This document shows positions 2,246-32,000 of a stretch of 32,000 nucleotides of DNA, in pieces (positions within the stretch are counted from its first letter, which is position 1; every line of letters starts with the position of its first letter). The DNA comes from Candidatus Electrothrix yaqonensis. GTDB lineage: Bacteria; Desulfobacterota; Desulfobulbia; Desulfobulbales; Desulfobulbaceae. The notes beneath the pieces are model-generated. The model saw only the letters and a program-made list of their open reading frames with translations. It was not told where the DNA came from and did no database searches. Location: assembly GCA_047651235.1 (NCBI GenBank), contig CP178758.1, positions 1,800,001 to 1,832,000 of the forward strand, read 5' to 3'. A program made the position numbers and the translations under genes.

Positions 2246-3466
2246 CTACACCATCCGCTCAGCCACAGAAACCGTCAAGTCACCGAGCATATTGGTATAG
2301 CTGCCCAGCTCGTTGTCGTACCAGCCATAGATGACAGCTTGGGTTACGGGAACCTCAAGAACATGAGGCCCTTGACCCGGATCAATGTTACAGCTTTTCA
2401 GATGATCAAGATTGACCTTGAGCGAAGCGGTGCGGGTATGGGTTTCTGTGGCTTCAATGACCGCTGCCGCCTCCGGAGTGCCGATAATGTCGGAAGAGAC
2501 ATTCTGTCCTTCGGAATATTTCAGGTACGGGTTGGTCTCAGCATATTCCTTGTAGATGGAATTGATCAGGTTGCGTTTCACCGGATTTTCCAGCTCGTCC
2601 TGCAGATTGAGCACCAGGACGATCAGGGAGCCGGTGGAAGTGGGCACCCGGACTGATTCGGCAATAAAGCCGATGCCTTTCATCTCCGGGATAACCAGAC
2701 CCAGAGCCTTGGCTGCACCGGTGGTGGTCAGGATGATATTATTGAGGATAGACCGATTTTTGCGCAGGTCAGTGGCTCCGGCAGCCGGAACAGCATCCAA
2801 CACCTTCTGACTGCCTGTGGCGGCATGGACTGTAACCATGGAGGCGGTCAACATCCGTCCGGCGCCGAAATGATCCATGAGCGGCTTGATCATATAGGAC
2901 AGGCAGGTGGTGGTACAGGAGGCAGCCGAGATAATGGAATGCCGGTCCGGGTTGTAATCGTCATCATTGATACCCATGACCGTGGTCACTGCATCATCCG
3001 GCATATCCAGGCCCTTGGATTTGATTTTGAACGGGGCCGAAACCATGACCTTTTCTGCACCGGCCTGGAGATGGCCGCGCACCGAGCCTCTCTGGGCGTC
3101 AGCATCAGCGGTCGGGTCTTTGAACACTCCGGTGGTATCCACCACCATGCGGATATTATTTTCCTGCCACTTGATATCCTTGGGATTGCGGGCCTCCCGC
3201 AGCACGGTGACCGGAACACCGTTCACGGTCATGGTGCCTGCAGCCTCGTTCAGGTTCTCAATCACCCGGCCTCCCTTATGACCATGCAGGTAGGTGGAAA
3301 GCCTGCCGTAGCTGGAATCTTTTTCAATGGTTGCGGCGATATCTTCTAGTCCGCTGCCGACCTGGCGGCCCAGATTGACTACAATTTCTGAAAAAAACTG
3401 ACGCGAAACATGGTGCCAGAGTGAGAGCTTTCCAATTCTGCCGAGACCGTTGATTCCCAGTTTCAT
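2246..3466 (-). CDS. gap: Glyceraldehyde-3-phosphate dehydrogenase (long, about 400-aa form)
   Basis: 406-aa ORF with the N-terminal Rossmann motif INGLGRIGK and the catalytic SAASCTTTCL (S-C-T-T) motif. Insertions make it longer than the canonical ~335-aa enzyme. It heads the gap-pgk-tpiA-secG string. Confidence 0.95.
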   Translation of the reverse strand: MKLGINGLGRIGKLSLWHHVSRQFFSEIVVNLGRQVGSGLEDIAATIEKDSSYGRLSTYLHGHKGGRVIENLNEAAGTMTVNGVPVTVLREARNPKDIKWQENNIRMVVDTTGVFKDPTADADAQRGSVRGHLQAGAEKVMVSAPFKIKSKGLDMPDDAVTTVMGINDDDYNPDRHSIISAASCTTTCLSYMIKPLMDHFGAGRMLTASMVTVHAATGSQKVLDAVPAAGATDLRKNRSILNNIILTTTGAAKALGLVIPEMKGIGFIAESVRVPTSTGSLIVLVLNLQDELENPVKRNLINSIYKEYAETNPYLKYSEGQNVSSDIIGTPEAAAVIEATETHTRTASLKVNLDHLKSCNIDPGQGPHVLEVPVTQAVIYGWYDNELGSYTNMLGDLTVSVAERMV

Positions 3467-3780
3467 AGTCGAGTTTCTCCTTTTTTCTCGTTTAATCTAA
3501 AAAATATAATCCGTATTCTATATTCTCCGAGGCTGAAGCTGCCGCAGTGAAATGTTCACAAGTAGAAGTATGACGGGACAAATCAGGATGTACTATATAT
3601 GGTATAAATCCATTTATTACAATGAAAAATCTTTTTATGGAAAATTTTTAACCGTCATTGAACAATATCCCTGCAGTGGTATTGCGTACTTGCAACGGGG
3701 GATACTTTATTGGAAACGGTCAGCTTTCAGGGGGAAATATTGGGCAGAAAACTGGATCGGAAGGGGTGGAAGGATTTTGT

Positions 3781-4992: not shown

Positions 4993-5068
4993 TGGTGGGC
5001 CGTGAAGGATTCGAACCTTCGACCAATTGATTAAGAGTCAACTGCTCTGCCAGCTGAGCTAACGGCCC
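4993..5068 (-). tRNA. tRNA-Lys (anticodon CTT), CCA encoded
   Basis: The reverse complement is GGGCCGTTAGCTCAGCTGGCAGAGCAGTTGACTCTTAATCAATTGGTCGAAGGTTCGAATCCTTCACGGCCCACCA. It folds as a cloverleaf: 7-bp acceptor, GCTC/GAGC D-stem, GTTGA/TCAAT anticodon stem with loop CTCTTAA (anticodon CTT), GAAGG/CCTTC T-stem with a TTCGAAT loop, and a 3' CCA. Confidence 0.93.
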
Positions 5069-23925: not shown

Positions 23926-24570
23926 TTGAGCGGGGAGTTTATTTTCCTCGGTTTATTTTTTTTCATGGCCAAAGATATTTTGTCCATTTTGTCCGTATGT
24001 CAGGGACGATATCGGGTCCGATGTCTTTCCGTTCTGCTGCTGTCTGCAGTCCTGCTATTTTCTTCCTCTGCCGCAGCTGAAGACGAACCGGTTATTGACG
24101 ACATAGTCATCACTCCCTTTGGCGGTAAACTGCTGCTTTTTGCTGAAGTCAAAAATTGTTTTACCGAAGAAATGCTTGAAGGGGTGCGCAATGGTATTCC
24201 GATTACCTTCCGGTTCGATATCCGGTTGGACCGGGTCCGGGATAACTGGTTTGATGCCGGGCTTGCCAAGCATAAAATCAATCATACGTTGAGTTACGAC
24301 CCGATTAAAGAAGAATACCAGGTCGCCTTTGCGGAAAAAGACAGACCGGAAGTCACCAGATCGCTGCAGGAGGCCAAGCAGATGATGGCAGAACTCAATG
24401 GGATTGAACTCTGTCCGCTTGAAAAAATGGCTGCCGGTTCGCTGTATTCATTTTCCATGAAGGCGACTTTGGTTGAAACGACCTTTCCCCTGGGAATTCA
24501 TTCTCTTATCCCGTTCACTGCGCTCTGGAATTTTGAAACCGATTGGCGGGTGATTGAATTCAGCTATTAA
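23926..24570 (+). CDS. DUF4390-like exported protein preceding the NtrY/NtrX pair
   Basis: 214-aa ORF. The true start may be the ATG at 23965 (MAKDIL...). The signal-like segment is LSVLLLSAVLLFSSSAAA. ITFRFDIRLDRVRDNWFDAGLAKHKINHTLSYDPIKEEYQV resembles the DUF4390 family, which typically sits just upstream of ntrY-like kinases. Recognised from memory of the family pattern. Confidence 0.65.
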   Translation: MSGEFIFLGLFFFMAKDILSILSVCQGRYRVRCLSVLLLSAVLLFSSSAAAEDEPVIDDIVITPFGGKLLLFAEVKNCFTEEMLEGVRNGIPITFRFDIRLDRVRDNWFDAGLAKHKINHTLSYDPIKEEYQVAFAEKDRPEVTRSLQEAKQMMAELNGIELCPLEKMAAGSLYSFSMKATLVETTFPLGIHSLIPFTALWNFETDWRVIEFSY

Positions 24571-24652
24571 ACCAGACAAACGCATCAGACCGGACCGGCA
24601 GGCCATCCTCCACCTTGCCTGACCGACCGTACTTTCTCCGAGACCACGCTCA

Positions 24653-26860
24653 ATGCTCACTCCTGAACAGCGCAGACAGAAAAAACGGTTCATCCGTTAT
24701 GTTATTGTCTTCTGTATGCTGCTCATTCCGCTGCTGGCCTATACCCAGCACAGTCTGCTGCAGGGGAAACTTAACCTGCCTGTGTCCAGCACGGTCCTGA
24801 TTTTCGCGCTGATCAATATTAACGGTCTGCTGCTGCTGCTCATGCTGTACCTAATTCTGCGGAATCTGGTGGAGCTTGTTTTTGAGCGCCGGAACAAAAT
24901 TCTCGGCTCCCAACTGCGGGTACGGCTGGTTATCGCCTTTGTTTCTCTGACCATGGTACCTACGGTCATTTTGTTTCTTGTTGCCTTGGGGTCTGTTTCC
25001 ACAGCAATGGAATACTGGTTCAACAGTAATGTGGAAGATTCCCTGCAGTCCTCGCTGAAGCTGGCCCAGAATTTGTTCCATGAAGTGGAGAACCGGGCTG
25101 CCAATATGGGCAGCCATCTCGGTCTGCTGCTGGAAAAGGCGGACCTGAGTATGGAAGATCACAGCGGATTGCAGCAGCTGTTCGATAAAACGCTTGCCAT
25201 TGTCCCGCTCGGCGCACCGGATGCCCTGACTTTGGTCAGTCCTCATCTGAATGTCGCAGTTTCCGCAAAAGGAGAACGTCTGACAGCAATATCCCTGCCT
25301 GAAGTTCCTACGGAAGCGCTGCGCAAGGCCGGGAACAGCAATGAGCCGGAAATTATCACCCGCCAAGTGCAGGCAGGGGAACTGGTGCAGGCTATTGTAC
25401 CGGTGCGTTCGAAAAAACAGAGTGATCTTTTTCTGGTGACCACGCTGCTGATCCCTGCAGACAAACTGGCGCTTATGCAGTCAGTTTCTAAGGGAATTAC
25501 AGGGTATAAACAGCTTGTTATGCTCAAGGCGCCGATCAAGTTGAGTATGATCATCATGCTGCTGATCATTACGCTGCTGATTCTCTTCGGTGCCATCTGG
25601 TTTGCCTTTGTTATTGCCCGGTCCATGACCGGCTCTATTAATAAACTGGCCGAGGGAACCCAGCGGGTTGCCGACGGCGAGCTGGATTTTACCATTGAAA
25701 AAGAATCAGAGGACGAAATGGGGTTGCTGGTTGATTCATTCAACTCCATGACCGCCGACCTGCTGGCAAGCAACCGGCAGCTTGCCGAGGCCCATGAAGC
25801 CCTGCAGCAGTCCAACCTGCTCTCGGAGCAGCGGCGGCGGTATCTGGAAACCATCCTCAAAAATGTTGCAGCCGGGGTTATCGCCATTAACGAGCATAAC
25901 GAGGTTACCACTATTAATCCTTTTGCGGAGAATCTGCTGAAAATAGATAGACAAAAGTTTCTCCATCATGATTTTCATACCGTGCTGCCAAAGGCGCATG
26001 TGACTGTCATGGAAGACTTTTTTAATGACCTGGTCAGTTCCGGTAAGCGTTCCATTGAACGGCATTTCAACCTGACGGTACGGAAAGGAGAAGCCTATTC
26101 CCTGCTGGTGAATATCACCCGACTGATCGATGACCGGCAGCGTTCCATCGGCTATGTTATCGTATTTGATAATCTCACCAAGCTGGAAAAGGCGCAGCGT
26201 CTGGCAGCTTGGCAGGAGGTGGCCCGCAGGATTGCCCATGAAATCAAGAATCCGCTGACCCCGATCCAGCTCTCCGCCCAGCGGCTCCGTAAACGGTATC
26301 TGGCAACTATAGAAAATGATCGTGAGATTTTTGAACAGTGCACCGGCACGATCATCAGTCAGGTGGATGAAATCAAGCGGCTGGTCACTGAATTTTCCGA
26401 TTTTGCCCGGATGCCCAGGGTGAAAAAACAACAGGCGGATATTGTTGCTATTGCCGCAGACACCCTGGTGCTGTATCGTGAAGGGCATAAGCATATCATC
26501 TTTCTGCTGGAATATGACGAAATTCCGCTGTTCTCCTTTGATCCGGTGCAGATCAAACGGGTACTGATCAACCTGCTGGACAATGCGGTCACCGTGCTTG
26601 CCGACGGAGGAACAATACACATTGAACTGCGTCTGAACCGCAAAGAGCAGATTGTCCGACTGCTGGTCAGCGATAACGGACCGGGTATGTCTGAGCAGGT
26701 CAGACGACGCCTGTTTGAGCCGTATTTTTCAACCCGCAAATCCGGGACAGGCCTTGGTCTTGCTATTGCCCATACCATTGTAACCGAGCATAACGGGATG
26801 ATTGAGGTGCATGACAAGAACCCTTCAGGAACTGTTTTTGCTGTGGAACTGCCTCTGTAG
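24653..26860 (+). CDS. ntrY: NtrY-like sensor histidine kinase (multi-TM, HAMP, PAS, HisKA, HATPase_c)
   Basis: 735-aa ORF. It has N-terminal TM helices and a HAMP region (ARSMTGSINKLAEGTQRVADGELDF). The H-box is AHEIKNPLTPIQLSAQRL, the typical NtrY form. The N/G boxes are DNAVTV, DNGPGM and GTGLGLAI. Confidence 0.88.
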   Translation: MLTPEQRRQKKRFIRYVIVFCMLLIPLLAYTQHSLLQGKLNLPVSSTVLIFALININGLLLLLMLYLILRNLVELVFERRNKILGSQLRVRLVIAFVSLTMVPTVILFLVALGSVSTAMEYWFNSNVEDSLQSSLKLAQNLFHEVENRAANMGSHLGLLLEKADLSMEDHSGLQQLFDKTLAIVPLGAPDALTLVSPHLNVAVSAKGERLTAISLPEVPTEALRKAGNSNEPEIITRQVQAGELVQAIVPVRSKKQSDLFLVTTLLIPADKLALMQSVSKGITGYKQLVMLKAPIKLSMIIMLLIITLLILFGAIWFAFVIARSMTGSINKLAEGTQRVADGELDFTIEKESEDEMGLLVDSFNSMTADLLASNRQLAEAHEALQQSNLLSEQRRRYLETILKNVAAGVIAINEHNEVTTINPFAENLLKIDRQKFLHHDFHTVLPKAHVTVMEDFFNDLVSSGKRSIERHFNLTVRKGEAYSLLVNITRLIDDRQRSIGYVIVFDNLTKLEKAQRLAAWQEVARRIAHEIKNPLTPIQLSAQRLRKRYLATIENDREIFEQCTGTIISQVDEIKRLVTEFSDFARMPRVKKQQADIVAIAADTLVLYREGHKHIIFLLEYDEIPLFSFDPVQIKRVLINLLDNAVTVLADGGTIHIELRLNRKEQIVRLLVSDNGPGMSEQVRRRLFEPYFSTRKSGTGLGLAIAHTIVTEHNGMIEVHDKNPSGTVFAVELPL

Positions 26861-26920
26861 GTACGAAGACGAAAGAGCTGCAATGACAAAAATCGTGAAC
26901 CGTAACAGATAAATGCCCCT

Positions 26921-28282
26921 ATGCCTGCGACCATTCTGATTATTGACGACGAAGCTCCTATCCGTGAAGTCCTGTCCGGCATTTTGAGTGATGAGGGTTT
27001 TCAGCCCCTTGCTGCTGCGTCTGCGGAAGAAGGGCTTGTCATCCTGGCGGAGCAGAAAGTGCATCTGGTCCTGCTCGATATCTGGCTGCCGGGCATGGAC
27101 GGCATTGCAGCCCTGGAAAAAATCAAGCAGGATGGCAACGAGGTGCCGGTCATCATGATTTCCGGGCACGGCACCATTGAAACAGCAGTGCAGGCAACCC
27201 GGATCGGCGCCTTTGATTTTATCGAAAAACCGCTGTCCTACGACAAGGTAATCCTTGCCATTAATCAGGGCCTGCATGTTGCCCGCCTTGAGCAGGAGAA
27301 TAGGCTGCTGCGGGAGTCAACACCCGGAGATTCCGAAATCATCGGCGACTCCGCCCTGATCCGGCAGATGCGCTTGCAGATCGAACGGGTCGCCCCCACA
27401 GATGCCTCGGTCCTGATTCTCGGTGGGCACGGGACCGGCAAGGAGCTGGTTGCCCAGTCCATCCACCGCCAGTCCGACCGTGCAAAACGGCCCATGATTG
27501 CCATCAACTGCGCAGCCATTCCGGAAGAGCTGATTGAGTCAGAACTGTTCGGCTATGAAAAAGGCGCTTTTACTGGGGCGGACAGAGCCAAAAAGGGCAG
27601 GTTTGATCAGGCGGACGGCTCAACCCTGTTTCTTGATGAAATCGGTGACATGAGCTTGAAGAGTCAGGCCAAAGTGCTGCGTATCCTGCAGGAAAGAAAA
27701 TTCGAGCGGGTCGGGGGCAACCAGACCATTGAGGTGGACGTCCGGATTCTGGCTGCTACCAACAAGGACCTGGAGAAGGAGATCGAGGCGGGTAATTTTC
27801 GGGCCGATCTCTTTTACCGGCTTAATGTGGTGCCGATCCGGCTTCCTGATCTGAAAGAACGTCTGGAAGACATCCCGCCGTTGGTGGCCTCCTTTCTGGA
27901 GCGGTTCCGGGGTAAGGGGCTGGGGGAAAAACGGTTTGCCGGAGATGCCCTGAGTATGCTCATGCAGCATCCTTGGCCCGGCAATATCCGGGAACTGCGC
28001 AATATGGTAGAGCGGCTGATGATTATGGTGCCGGGGCAGGTCATCACGGCGGATGATGTTGCAGTGTTCCTCAATCCCGGTGCATTTCAGCCAGTTGCCA
28101 TCCATTTTGAAGCAGGGTACCGCCATCTTGCCTTCAAAGATGCCCGTAGGCAGTTTGAACATGATTACCTCAAGGCCAAACTTGAGGAAAACGAGGGCAA
28201 TGTTTCCAGAACCGCTGAGCTGATCGGTATGGAACGGAGCCATCTGCATAAAAAAGTGAAGGCACTCGGTATCAAGGTCTGA
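26921..28282 (+). CDS. ntrX: NtrX-like sigma-54-dependent response regulator (REC, AAA+, Fis HTH)
   Basis: 453-aa ORF. The receiver domain shows ILIIDDE...LLDIWLPGMDG. The AAA+ sigma-54 interaction module shows GGHGTGKE, ESELFGYEKGAFTGA, TLFLDEIGDM and RADLFYRLNV. The C-terminal HTH is GNVSRTAELIGMERSHLHKKVKALGI. Confidence 0.9.
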   Translation: MPATILIIDDEAPIREVLSGILSDEGFQPLAAASAEEGLVILAEQKVHLVLLDIWLPGMDGIAALEKIKQDGNEVPVIMISGHGTIETAVQATRIGAFDFIEKPLSYDKVILAINQGLHVARLEQENRLLRESTPGDSEIIGDSALIRQMRLQIERVAPTDASVLILGGHGTGKELVAQSIHRQSDRAKRPMIAINCAAIPEELIESELFGYEKGAFTGADRAKKGRFDQADGSTLFLDEIGDMSLKSQAKVLRILQERKFERVGGNQTIEVDVRILAATNKDLEKEIEAGNFRADLFYRLNVVPIRLPDLKERLEDIPPLVASFLERFRGKGLGEKRFAGDALSMLMQHPWPGNIRELRNMVERLMIMVPGQVITADDVAVFLNPGAFQPVAIHFEAGYRHLAFKDARRQFEHDYLKAKLEENEGNVSRTAELIGMERSHLHKKVKALGIKV

Positions 28283-29306: not shown

Positions 29307-29676
29307 TTTTAGGGGGTGTGATTAAAAGTGCGGTTTTCGGTAGTAGGCCCGAACGACTTCAAGCGTGCGTTGTGAGATCCTGAGGTTCGTTTTTCGTCCG
29401 CAGGATGGCCTTTAGAAACTTGTTTTTCAAATAGCTTCTGAAACGGATGAATCCATTTAAAATCGACAGTTTGCAGGAATACCCGCCAAGAGACATCCCG
29501 CGAGGGGCCGCAGTTCCGGCGAGGTTTTAAAACAGCTTCTTATCTCTGCAGCATCAGTATGTCCTCATGATCTGACGGAGCACACAATACGCCCATTGCG
29601 ACAGCAATACCCCCTCAACAGGGCAAAAACGGTCCGAAACTGATCCTGCTTTTCTACACACCCTGTTTTGAACGAA

Positions 29677-29900
29677 TTAACAGGATGATCCGCCCGACTT
29701 GAAAAAGACCTCCTCCAAGGTGGAGGCGGTCAGAATCCGCTCCGACCAGGTCTCCAGCATTGCGCAGGATGCCTGATGCAGCCGCTCCTCGGCCCAGCCG
29801 GACAGAACGCTGAAACGCGTTTGCGCAGCATCCACAGCAGCAGACGAACCTTTCCTTCCTGCCGTCCCTGGTTGACATATCTGCGTACGTACTGCGCTGC
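29677..29900 (-). pseudogene. Frameshifted C-terminal remnant of a DUF4351 / Rpn-family (PD-(D/E)XK nuclease, putative transposase) gene
   Basis: One minus frame reads YVNQGRQEGKVRLLLWMLRK (about 29820-29880). The adjacent frame continues RFSVLSGWAEERLHQASCAMLETWSERILTASTLEEVF to the stop at 29677. Together they match the DUF4351 pattern G.QEG.....LL..L..RFG.L.......L...S...LE.W..R.L.A.sLeEVF. A 1-2 nt frame break lies near 29815-29822, and no nuclease domain is found upstream. Confidence 0.5.
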
Positions 29901-30337
29901 GATGTTGCTGTTTAGACAGGTCAAGTATCAAGGCAACTGTCCGGCTGTGTACAGTTTTTTATGTAAAAATAATTAATATTTTTTTGACTATACTTGGAAA
30001 AAAAATATTTTTTTAAGCAAACAAGCAGATATTGAGGAAGCTTTTTTGTAAATGCTTTCTTTTTGATCCTGCTTTCCTTTGTATATTACTATAAAAACAG
30101 CATGTTATGTCGAATTCAAGAGTGATAATTTCTTCTATGTATCTTTTTGAAATAAATATATTTTTTTCTTGACTTGGCGTTTAAAGTTTTATACTCTTGT
30201 ATAAGAAAGTTGATTACTGCTGTTTCCTTCTGAATTGCAAGAGAAAGAGAGGAGAAAATTTGCGGTGCGGCTTTCGTAAAAAGTTTGTCAGTCGTATACA
30301 GAAACAACATTCATAATTATGGCAGCGCTTATTCAGT

Positions 30338-30452
30338 AAGCAGGTGCTGTGCTTTCCGGTCGGAAACGGAAAGCTGATAAAGCCACAACCGCCGCGAGGC
30401 GGTGTCGGAAAACTTCGGGTCTCCGGAAAGGAGACGGCCGGGTTGCCTGCTT
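30338..30452 (+). ncRNA. Candidate structured RNA core, unit copy 1 (unassigned family; leader or riboregulator)
   Basis: The closing helix is aagcaggtg (30338-30346) / tgcctgctt (30444-30452). It encloses three hairpins: 30351-30374 (gctttccg/cggaaagc), 30388-30403 (accgcc-GCGA-ggcggt) and 30419-30435 (gtctcc-ggaaa-ggagac). See the findings for covariation between copies. Confidence 0.45.
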
Positions 30453-30479
30453 TTAGTCAGATGTACCGGGAGGTAAGTT

Positions 30480-30617
30480 ATGAAGTCGAAGCTCCTTAAA
30501 ACGGTCTGTAACCATACAGTCCTTTTACCTTTCACAAACACGAACATTCATAATTATGGCAGTGCTTATTATTCAGTAAGCAGGTGCTGTGCTTTCCGGT
30601 CGGAAACGGAAAGCTGA
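30480..30617 (+). CDS. Hypothetical 45-aa sORF opened by the unit-1 SD/ATG
   Basis: GGGAGG (30468-30473), then 6 nt, then ATG. It reads MKSKLLKTVCNHTVLLPFTNTNIHNYGSAYYSVSRCCAFRSETES and stops at TGA TAA inside unit 2. It is below the 60-aa cutoff of the ORF track. Coding status is unproven. Confidence 0.3.
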   Translation: MKSKLLKTVCNHTVLLPFTNTNIHNYGSAYYSVSRCCAFRSETES

Positions 30618-30692
30618 TAAAGCCACAATCGTCGCGAGGCGATGTCGGAAAACTTCGGGTCTCCGGAAAGGAGACGGCCGGGTTGCCTGCTT
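30578..30692 (+). ncRNA. Candidate structured RNA core, unit copy 2
   Basis: Same fold as copy 1. The middle hairpin is atcgtc-GCGA-ggcgat, with C-G to U-A at pair 2 and C to U (giving G-U) at pair 5. Confidence 0.45.
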
Positions 30693-30719
30693 TTAGTCAA
30701 ATGTACCGGGAGGTAAGTT

Positions 30720-30854
30720 ATGAAGTCGAAGCTCCTTAAAACGGTCTGTAACCATACAGTCCTTTTACCTTTCACAAACACGAACATTCATAATTATGGC
30801 AGCGCTTATTCAGTAAGCAGGTGCTGTGCTTTCCGGTCAGAAACGGAAAGTTGA
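30720..30854 (+). CDS. Hypothetical 44-aa sORF opened by the unit-2 SD/ATG
   Basis: Same SD spacing. It reads MKSKLLKTVCNHTVLLPFTNTNIHNYGSAYSVSRCCAFRSETES. It differs from the first sORF by two synonymous changes and one in-frame codon. Confidence 0.3.
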   Translation: MKSKLLKTVCNHTVLLPFTNTNIHNYGSAYSVSRCCAFRSETES

Positions 30855-30929
30855 TAAAGCCACAACCGCTGCGAGGCGGTGTCGGAAAACTTCGGGTCTC
30901 CGGAAAGGAGACGGCCGGGTTGCCTGCTT
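30815..30929 (+). ncRNA. Candidate structured RNA core, unit copy 3
   Basis: Same fold. The first hairpin closes with G-U (cggaaagt) and its loop reads gtcagaaa. The middle hairpin is accgct-GCGA-ggcggt, with a G-U at the loop-closing pair. Confidence 0.45.
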
Positions 30930-30956
30930 TTAGTCAGATGTACCGGGAGGTAAGTT

Positions 30957-31091
30957 ATGAAGTCGAAGCTCCTTAAAACGGTCTGTAACTATACAGTCCT
31001 TTTACCTTTCACAAACACGAACATTCATAATTATGGCAGCGCTTATTCAGTAAGCAGGTGCTGTGCTTTCCGGTCGGACACGGAAAGCTGA
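30957..31091 (+). CDS. Hypothetical 44-aa sORF opened by the unit-3 SD/ATG
   Basis: Same SD spacing. It reads MKSKLLKTVCNYTVLLPFTNTNIHNYGSAYSVSRCCAFRSDTES, with H12Y and E41D relative to the other copies. Confidence 0.3.
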   Translation: MKSKLLKTVCNYTVLLPFTNTNIHNYGSAYSVSRCCAFRSDTES

Positions 31092-31165
31092 TAAAGCCAC
31101 AATCGTCGTGAGGCGATGTCGGAAAACTTCGGGTCTCCCAAAGGAGACGGCCGGGTTGCCTGCTT
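31052..31165 (+). ncRNA. Candidate structured RNA core, unit copy 4
   Basis: Same fold. The middle hairpin is atcgtc-GUGA-ggcgat, so the tetraloop is still GNRA. The third hairpin keeps gtctcc/ggagac while its loop is shortened from ggaaa to caaa. Confidence 0.45.
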
Positions 31166-31194
31166 TTAGTCAAATCTGTACCGGGAGGTAAGTT

Positions 31195-31422
31195 ATGAAA
31201 TCGAAGTTCCCCAGAAGCGGCTTGCAGCTGTCTGTTTTCTTCAGCTGCGCCAGCAGTTCAGCTGGTCGCCGCCACTCTTCTCCTTCTGTTCGGAAAAAAC
31301 ACAAAATATTTACGGATAGTATCGGCTCCAAGTGTCATCGATCAGGTGCAGTTTTAGCTCTGTCTCCAGATTTCAAAGAGGGACAGTTCGACGATACTGA
31401 AAAACATCATTCAACCTGCTAA
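31195..31422 (+). CDS. Hypothetical 75-aa ORF opened by the unit-4 SD/ATG (Ser/Lys/Arg-rich, no recognisable family)
   Basis: It has the same GGGAGG-N6-ATG and the first four residues MKSK as the sORFs, then reads unique sequence (FPRSGLQLSVFFSCASSSAGRRHSS...). The composition is not typical of a globular protein, and AT-rich DNA follows. Confidence 0.3.
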   Translation: MKSKFPRSGLQLSVFFSCASSSAGRRHSSPSVRKKHKIFTDSIGSKCHRSGAVLALSPDFKEGQFDDTEKHHSTC

Positions 31423-31664
31423 AAAGATATTTTTGACACTTTATTTCTCTAATGGGCAACATTTGTAGATTTTTATCCTATATTTTACGTTTTATATTTT
31501 ATATTTTTGGCAAACAATGACATAATATAAAAAAAGTAGCTTAAAAACAATTTTTCTCTTGACACAAGAAGCAATACGATTTACGCTTATCAAGCAATAC
31601 TCGAAAGCAAAAAATAGATATCACGCTTCTTAAGAATATTTTGCTTCGACTGGAGGTTTTGAGA

Positions 31665-32000
31665 ATGGATAGATATTTTACAATAATACTACTGATGTTA
31701 TTTCTTTGTACTGCGTCTGTGGCTATTGGAAAAGAAAATAAACAATTTTCCGGTGCTTTTTTGATTGACCAAACTGTAAAAGCAAACGATTTTACCGGGA
31801 AATCTGTTAGTGATGCCGGTGTTGCCCAAGGCGGAAATGTTGTTACAGGAATGGCGATTGCAGGAGTAGGTCAGAACGCAATTCTTGACGGTGACCTTGA
31901 ATTGAAAATGAAAAAAGGCGAGCGCAACACCCAGGGCCTGAACGTTGTTTCCGGCAAAGTAACGGCGCTTGTCGGTCAGATCGGCGTGGTTGATGAGGAT
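31665..32000 (+). CDS. Secreted Gly/Val/Gln/Asn-rich protein, N-terminal 112 codons (runs off the right edge)
   Basis: Absent from the ORF track because there is no stop in the window. GGAGG (31652-31656) lies 8 nt before ATG 31665. The signal peptide is MDRYFTIILLMLFLCTASVAIG. The frame then stays open to 32000 (...GVAQGGNVVTGMAIAGVGQNAILDGDLELKMKKGERNTQGLNVVSGKVTALVGQIGVVDED). I recognise no family. Confidence 0.6.
   Translation, partial: MDRYFTIILLMLFLCTASVAIGKENKQFSGAFLIDQTVKANDFTGKSVSDAGVAQGGNVVTGMAIAGVGQNAILDGDLELKMKKGERNTQGLNVVSGKVTALVGQIGVVDED

Follow-up and report, generated by a model that had tools for sequence, protein, structure and literature searches.

Four c-di-GMP-I riboswitch aptamers in series, each followed by its own ribosome-binding site and short open reading frame, in a cable bacterium

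What is encoded by an array of near-identical repeats in which every unit closes with a strong ribosome-binding site (RBS) and a start codon, and are the short reading frames that those start codons open to be taken as genes? The question is raised by a locus of the cable bacterium Candidatus Electrothrix sp. YB6, whose 3.7-Mb genome is closed and which has been described as Ca. Electrothrix yaqonensis (PMC12093952). The locus lies near the end of a stretch of 32,000 nucleotides (contig CP178758.1, positions 1,800,001 to 1,832,000 of the forward strand), here called the window, in which coordinates are counted from the first letter unless another contig is named. A reading made from the sequence alone had left two explanations standing: tandem small-protein genes, each behind a structured leader, or a leader amplified together with the first codons of the open reading frame (ORF) behind it. 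The analysis described here finds a c-di-GMP-I riboswitch aptamer in every unit (c-di-GMP, cyclic diguanosine monophosphate), and the explanation that we consider probable is that one leader RNA carries four complete c-di-GMP-I riboswitches in series, each gating its own RBS, with the short ORFs (sORFs) behind them being gated leader ORFs or by-products.

The repeat itself is far beyond chance. Tandem Repeats Finder gives a 237-nt period with 3.8 copies and 94% matches at window positions 30306-31210, and ungapped repeat finding gives a unit of 237-240 nt with copy spacings of 240, 237 and 237. The hexamer GGGAGG, a strong Shine-Dalgarno (SD) sequence, lies at 30468, 30708, 30945 and 31183, and is followed in each case, after six further nucleotides, by an ATG (30480, 30720, 30957 and 31195). 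The sequence-only reading had described GGGAGG-N6-ATG as closing every unit, and this is what is found at all four coordinates; the three sORFs and the longer fourth ORF that it had reported are likewise in the ORF list (45, 44, 44 and 75 codons), and the TGA-TAA doublet that it had placed at the end of each of the three sORFs is there as well, being GCUGAUAAAG on the 5' border of the aptamer that follows. Its account of the differences between copies is correct for AGC/AGT (twice), TCG/TCA, H to Y, E to D, an in-frame TAT insertion and the 1- and 2-nt indels outside the ORFs, and needs one amendment, since the AAG to AAA change of the fourth ORF lies in codon 2 and not in codon 3.

An Rfam scan of the whole window detects four c-di-GMP-I aptamers (RF01051), with scores of 54-56 bits against a gathering threshold of 35 and with full coverage of the model; judged by sequence and model, the structured leader of every unit is a complete c-di-GMP-I riboswitch aptamer. 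The sequence-only reading had seen a strong SD-ATG behind structured RNA in every unit, together with a weak coding signal, and was right about both; what it did not state was the identity of the structured RNA. Four same-strand aptamers are found within one leader, spaced at 237-240 nt and each with its own SD-AUG, so that the array is a homotypic tandem. The related variant model c-di-GMP-I-GGC (RF03167) was also considered: at permissive thresholds it scores 54.4-58.4 bits and is the best clan member by E-value, but this is under its own gathering threshold of 59, and the junction G of the variant reads A here (AA, not GA), as in canonical c-di-GMP-I, so it was rejected.

A second array of this kind was retrieved from a 3.7-kb metagenome contig of the Joint Genome Institute (JGI), L009, which encodes a protein (P0002) 67% identical to the product of the gene downstream of the array in the window. 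Upstream of P0002 are two aptamers 235 nt apart, with the same unit anatomy and with 50-52 bits for the best clan member. Together, the four units of the window and the two of L009 provide an alignment of six. In the alignment to the consensus sequences of both clan members, the nucleotide ahead of the first pair is G, J2/3 has A-A and J3/1 has G-C. We take the G, A and C in question to be the equivalents of Vc2 G20, A47 and C92, presumably contacting the ligand as they do in canonical c-di-GMP binders. The first of these is the specificity position, at which, according to a survey of tandem riboswitches, A instead of G marks binders of c-AMP-GMP (Sherlock et al. 2022, PMC9481103). It is G, not A, in six of the six units; specificity for c-AMP-GMP or cGAMP (GEMM-Ib) was therefore rejected, and the G makes c-di-GMP the expected ligand, predicted for all units.

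Over the six units no change is seen in the P3 stem, the junctions or the core, and the copies differ in the P3 loop. All cells of P2 and P3 (100%) are paired, and all of the variation in P2 keeps the pairing; it consists of one C-G to U-A double change, which separates unit 2 from units 1 and 3 of the same array, and three wobble changes. The P2 loop is always of the GNRA type (GCGA, GUGA or GCAA). Such structure-preserving variation in all four aptamers argues for selection on each of them. At four diagnostic sites, unit 1 agrees with unit 3 and unit 2 with unit 4 (an ABAB pattern), and alternate units are about 98% identical, which indicates that the quadruplet arose through duplication of a doublet like that in L009. 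Apart from this, an internal loop beside the ligand site departs from the family consensus in the same way in both species, with GGCAAAC replaced by GCCACAAC and GACGC by GUCGG (30388-30403 and equivalents); the deviating positions can form a near-continuous helix.

How would such an aptamer act on what follows it? The SD and the AUG are invariant in all six units, while the linker adjoining them has indels, and each aptamer is separated from its own RBS by 17-19 nt. No terminator-like site was found inside the units by a terminator scan, and an intrinsic terminator in each unit, formed by hairpin H1 and a U-tract, was rejected because L009 has no such U-tract and the scan gave no hit; the SD-AUG is therefore likely to be the expression platform of the riboswitch. 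The 5' flank of every unit is complementary to the whole RBS, with a predicted duplex of -18.4 kcal/mol compared with -10.6 +/- 2.3 in shuffled sequences, 6 of 1000 of which do as well. The duplex of UGCUGUGCUUUCCGGU with ACCGGGAGGUAAGU is put at -17.8 kcal/mol, UUAUGAA is the partner of the invariant UUCAUAA box, and one compensatory change from U-A to C-G is seen in the anti-SD helix. The anti-SD is also the 5' strand of a hairpin, P0 (GCUUUCCG/CGGAAAGC), whose 3' strand overlaps the 5' strand of the proximal P1 (AAAGCUG/CUGCUUU), an overlap by which a P1 stabilised by ligand would free the anti-SD and close the RBS. This would be a classical three-part switch: without ligand, P0 would hold the anti-SD and the SD would be free; with c-di-GMP, P1 would form, the anti-SD would be released, and the RBS would be closed in a stack coaxial with P1. 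When the aptamer core is forced in ViennaRNA, the probability that the SD is unpaired is lower in four of the six units and unchanged in the other two. Three candidate anti-SD partners give conflicting switching logic, and for the proposed gating of the RBS by sequestration we lean, by a modest degree, towards c-di-GMP as the OFF signal.

If each unit gates its own start codon, the sORFs of 44 or 45 codons would be the stretch read from it until the UGA-UAA bordering the following aptamer is reached. The four gates would act on the downstream genes through translation-dependent read-through: a leader ORF left untranslated would expose a C-rich, G-poor tract to Rho, and translation would protect the transcript. 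A series of four gates would make the response steeper or more sensitive than a single one would. The first 80-100 nt of each sORF have a GC skew of -0.18 to -0.37, a composition seen nowhere else in the array, and it is from this excess of C over G at each sORF start that we infer a shielding of the transcript from Rho by translation. Rho dependence and serial read-through gating are proposed here by analogy; in E. coli, translational riboswitches have been described in which repression also triggers Rho-dependent termination. The order of array and downstream gene cluster is kept in two species, which supports a link between them in cis.

Several observations weigh against this account of serial, RBS-gating riboswitches. 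With regard to the direction of switching, the 3' tail of the aptamer (UUGCCUGCU) pairs with GGGAGGUAA in the RNAalifold consensus and a distal P1' (AAGCAG/CUGCUU) is energetically comparable, both of which would give the opposite (ON) logic; the start codon is predicted to be paired in both states; and where unit 1 of L009 has the compensatory pair of the anti-SD helix, its unit 2 has a mismatch. The single orthologous array retrieved gives thin covariation support for the helices of the platform. With regard to the sORFs, the differences between the window and L009 fall 9/8/16 by codon position, with 16 of 33 at the third (p=0.05), dN/dS (nonsynonymous over synonymous rate, Nei-Gojobori) is 0.24 compared with 0.9-1.1 in the other two frames, and 15 of the differences are synonymous where 9.6 +/- 2.2 are expected in a simulation that respects transition bias (p=0.011). 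Finally, the secreted-protein gene starts about 500 nt past the last aptamer, behind a spacer with promoter-like sites, which are themselves not commoner than in shuffled sequence (5 versus 3.3 +/- 1.9).

One could instead suppose, and we think it unlikely, that the internal SD-ATGs are inert, left over when a translational riboswitch was duplicated along with the first codons of its ORF, and that only the aptamers, or only the last unit, matter; control would then be exerted through RNA stability, through weak termination at H1 and its U-tract or through long-range refolding, with translation of the sORFs irrelevant. The ABAB pattern and the 98% identity of alternate units do speak of a recent expansion, the window units have a hairpin and then UUUUACCUUU directly past the ATG, and the start codon is predicted to be paired in all states. 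Moreover, simulated neutral divergence leaves the ORF open in 28-57% of trials. Ahead of the first aptamer, in DNA that lacks an SD-ATG, this frame likewise runs open for 47 codons in the window and at least 44 in L009, and openness of the ORF alone is therefore not strong evidence. What this supposition does not accommodate is the invariance of SD, spacing and AUG in six units of two species beside a linker that has indels, nor does it fit with the absence of the U-tract in L009, with the lack of any detected terminator-like site inside the units or with the signs of selection on each of the four aptamers. As the last unit reads only a non-conserved ORF, coupling to a distant gene would be needed in any case.

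That the sORFs are genes after all -- three riboswitch-controlled genes for real proteins of 44 aa, made under the control of a c-di-GMP switch -- seems to us decidedly improbable. In its favour are the strong SD, the ideal spacing and the invariant ATG, the length of the L009 sORF, which is again exactly 44 codons and free of any net indel, and the synonymous and third-position excess with the low dN/dS given above. The encoded peptide (MKSKLLKTVCNHTVLLPFTNTNIHNYGSAYSVSRCCAFRSETES), however, is identical to its only orthologue, that of L009, at 27 of 44 residues (61%), which is not above the neutral expectation of 24.7 +/- 2.1 (p=0.18; simulation). The replacements include radical ones (L to S, L to P, V to G, F to S and C to R), and the cysteine pattern is not kept (Y30C, C36R). 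Read from the sequences, codons 5-9 look like the same DNA frame-shifted by compensating indels between the two species, and the last 22 codons coincide with the RNA elements box, H2 and P0, which are present ahead of the first aptamer too, in both species and with no start codon there. The peptide has no signal segment, nor a hydrophobic stretch long enough to span a membrane. The ORF past the last unit fares no better: its 75 aa in the window correspond to 32 aa in L009, the homologous DNA being read in a shifted frame. Of the second explanation offered by the sequence-only reading, a leader amplified from in front of this ORF, the amplification can be retained, by duplication of a doublet, while the 75-aa ORF is not a conserved gene.

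Nor has any homologue been found. Exact look-ups of the 44-aa and 75-aa products returned no record, the sORF had no match in a word-indexed search of 5.8 billion proteins, and neither it nor the 75-aa ORF had a match in Pfam or NCBIfam. A six-frame bait made from the unit and aimed at spurious ORF calls over related arrays found no match, and the sORF is not called as a gene in L009. Four HMMER matches to the sORF among 1.84 G representative proteins were rejected as compositional: they match in multiple stretches, three of them are in internally repetitive proteins (907, 444 and 594 aa), and the fourth is in a protein of 5365 aa. Homologues of the two products, which the sequence-only reading had proposed to look for, were thus sought by protein search, with no credible one for the 44-aa peptide and no record for the 75-aa product; conservation of the frame, also proposed there, was followed in one orthologue, in which the length of the sORF is kept along with a low dN/dS in a peptide of limited identity. 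Taken together, the poor conservation, the radical changes, the lack of a homologue and the frame-shifted last ORF suggest that the 44-residue peptide is probably not a functional, selected product. The more specific suggestions of precursors of ribosomally synthesized and post-translationally modified peptides (RiPPs) or of type I toxins are left unsupported: a RiPP precursor array was rejected on the identity, the cysteine changes, the absence of a family match and the absence of a maturation enzyme or transporter by the L009 array (the neighbours inspected were those in L009, four small secreted paralogues and a transposase; the window ends at 32000), and a type I toxin on the absence of a hydrophobic membrane-spanning stretch.

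There is a small chance, which we rate as very slight, that the array is not, or not only, a regulator in cis: as an RNA reaching from promoter to trailer, its four aptamers closed in by a duplex of leader and trailer, it would serve as a buffer or sponge for c-di-GMP, or be processed into a responsive RNA, in a bacterium that is multicellular and conducts electricity. A less radical version of this idea is a translation relay, in which ribosomes ending sORF n at the UGA-UAA in aptamer n+1 would unfold the anti-SD hairpin and the aptamer there, so that the four switches would be read in sequence and not independently of one another. A stand-alone non-coding RNA of four aptamers, closed by a duplex of leader and trailer and either buffering or reporting c-di-GMP or processed from a longer precursor, is scarcely credible: there is no conserved protein gene directly past the last unit, the downstream gene is distant and behind promoter-like sites, and leader (30207-30296) and trailer (31216-31328) can form a duplex of -57.8 kcal/mol compared with -44.0 +/- 4.9 in shuffles (3-4 of 500 as good), with a conserved 29-nt block in the trailer, but the synteny of array and cluster in two species, the weakness of this complementarity in L009 (21-57 of 500 shuffles as good, the leader there being cut by the contig end) and the conserved RBS of every unit, which would have no role in a sponge, all speak against it, and we know of no precedent. 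The leader-trailer complementarity itself could be a closing or processing stem. The 29-nt block, pyrimidine-rich and then A-rich, is TTCTCCTTCTGTTCGGAAAAAACACAAAA (31278-31306; about 538-568 in L009), and is conserved amid poorly conserved post-array DNA; a related CTTCTG motif is present in the 5' leader of both species.

Table 1. Features of the array and its surroundings (window coordinates; bit scores are for RF01051)
Feature	Coordinates	Strand	Remarks
Candidate promoter of the leader (weak)	30169..30195	+	TTGACT, 15 nt, TATACT; by eye; missed in the consensus scan owing to the 15-nt spacer
5' leader	30200..30305	+	purine-rich (GAGAAAGAGAGGAGAA), complementary to trailer; 5' part (UUUCCUUCUGAA...) aligns with the start of L009
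Riboswitch unit 1	30306..30479	+	TTCATAA box 30310-16, H2 30327-41, P0 30351-74, aptamer 30372-30450, SD 30468-73; 55.8 bits
sORF 1, 45 codons	30480..30617	+	begins 6 nt downstream of the unit 1 SD; ends at the UGA-UAA within J1/2 of aptamer 2; holds H1 (30503-22), a C-rich, G-poor tract, then box, H2 and P0 of unit 2
Riboswitch unit 2	30543..30719	+	box 30547-53, P0 30591-30614, aptamer 30612-30690, SD 30708-13; 54 bits
sORF 2, 44 codons	30720..30854	+	ORF list; compared codon by codon with L009 236-370
Riboswitch unit 3	30783..30956	+	box 30787-93, P0 30828-51, aptamer 30849-30927, SD 30945-50; 54.2 bits; ~98% identical to unit 1
sORF 3, 44 codons	30957..31091	+	ORF list
Riboswitch unit 4	31020..31194	+	box 31024-30, P0 31065-88, aptamer 31086-31163, SD 31183-88; 55.3 bits; 4 diagnostic sites in common with unit 2
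ORF past the last unit, 75 codons	31195..31422	+	not conserved as protein; holds the 29-nt block shared with L009
AT-rich spacer	31423..31664	+	promoter-like sites, e.g. TTGACA 31559-64, 17 nt, TACGCT 31582-87
Start of presumed regulated gene	31665..32000	+	orphan secreted protein, 137 aa, ACL93V_08665; cut by window end

The partial ORF that begins past the spacer matches P0001, a hypothetical protein of Ca. Electrothrix sp. YB6, with 100% identity. The family to which it belongs has five matches among the 5.8 billion proteins, and those with a named organism are from Ca. Electrothrix sp. YB6. Its members are secreted proteins of about 113-145 aa, in which QGxNVV occurs three times and the C-terminal C-E-x-C (C-E-G-C) is invariant. 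They occur as tandem paralogues: in L009 (878-2919), P0002, the orthologue of the window gene, opens a cluster of small secreted orphan proteins, with three further paralogues and a transposase behind it. The latter is a DDE transposase gene at 3036-3470 of that contig, on the minus strand, past the four-gene cluster. The downstream protein has no match in Pfam, NCBIfam or PDB, and its AlphaFold model is unusable (predicted local distance difference test score, pLDDT, of 30); a curli-like or other known fold was rejected on these grounds. A role of the family in the envelope or sheath is a matter for speculation.

On the other side of the array lies hemB, and directly upstream of hemB (window 23926-28282) are genes for a DUF4390 protein, a HAMP/PAS histidine kinase and an NtrX-like sigma-54 response regulator, the latter two resembling an NtrY/NtrX pair. 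Between hemB and the AT-rich promoter region, about 650 nt (29307-29960) hold no convincing ORF; Rfam gives nothing there at E<=1, and the ORFs lack a Pfam match. A decayed gene and an unknown RNA are both possible explanations. At 4996-5068, on the minus strand, there is a tRNA gene (73 bits). Further arrays were sought in several collections. A scan for the aptamer pattern in a collection of genome contigs, of which the source genome is not part, gave 7 single matches, none of them a riboswitch; a DNA scan of metagenome contigs and a scan of viral contigs gave 0 matches each, and a protein-based metagenome scan gave one 1-kb contig without upstream DNA. A short-read Logan contig of the same strain, L001 (SRR31704081, 24.5 kb), was the only public contig found to encode a product identical to that of a window gene, hemB being the one looked up; it ends about 220 nt past hemB, at about window 29528 and so before the array; short-read assemblies may therefore miss or collapse such arrays.

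Serial c-di-GMP-I riboswitches have relatives elsewhere. In the survey of Sherlock et al. 2022 (PMC9481103), c-di-GMP-I is given as the commonest tandem class, with 347 doublets and 12 triplets, and a second survey describes tandem c-di-GMP-I riboswitches as enriched in Thermodesulfobacteriota (PMC12452182). The window array resembles the pseudo-cooperative tandems of both in having aptamers of the same class arranged head to tail; theirs, as the main texts present them, reach doublets and triplets, whereas here there are four units, each with an SD-AUG and a short ORF, and in those main texts there is no mention of a c-di-GMP-I quadruplet, or of short ORFs, leader peptides or Rho in tandem arrays. 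The nearest counterpart in arrangement is Bc3-5 of Bacillus thuringiensis, near-identical complete c-di-GMP-I riboswitches in series in one 5' leader, for which a more digital response has been proposed (Zhou et al. 2016, PMC4759541). Bc3-5 is a triplet with an intrinsic terminator in each unit and transcriptional ON control, in contrast to the four units of the window, which have no terminator-like site and have instead an SD-AUG with a short ORF (44/45 codons in units 1-3, 75 in unit 4); the phylum and the regulated genes differ as well.

There is also a likeness to translational, RBS-sequestering riboswitches, in the C-rich, G-poor tract downstream of the start codon in the window units. 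In the known cases, though, the gated ORF is the regulated gene, while in the window three gated ORFs run only as far as the next aptamer, and the remaining one is a leader ORF that is not conserved. In Geobacter, c-AMP-GMP (GEMM-Ib) riboswitches control genes of exoelectrogenesis. They share with the window units the same aptamer fold, an occurrence in a related electroactive lineage and a position upstream of genes for extracytoplasmic proteins, and differ at the specificity position, which is A in Geobacter and G here. The aptamers of the window, then, are members of c-di-GMP-I, and what is new is the copy number of four, the RBS and short ORF in every unit, and the organism; no paper was found that ties cable bacteria to riboswitches or to control by c-di-GMP.

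If the account of serial gates is true, a four-unit array extends the reported doublet-to-triplet range of c-di-GMP-I tandems. Tandem riboswitches are natural examples of steep, "digital" control based on RNA, and with an RBS and short ORF in place of a terminator, serial translational switches would need to be linked to one distant gene; the compact, repetitive locus makes the coupling of gated leader translation to read-through directly testable. For annotation there is a caution here, in that sORFs led by an SD-ATG inside riboswitch arrays mimic small-protein genes and probably are not such genes. For the organism, the locus points to lineage-restricted small secreted proteins regulated by c-di-GMP in a cable bacterium whose envelope structures, the conductive fibres and sheaths, are of high interest and largely uncharacterised.

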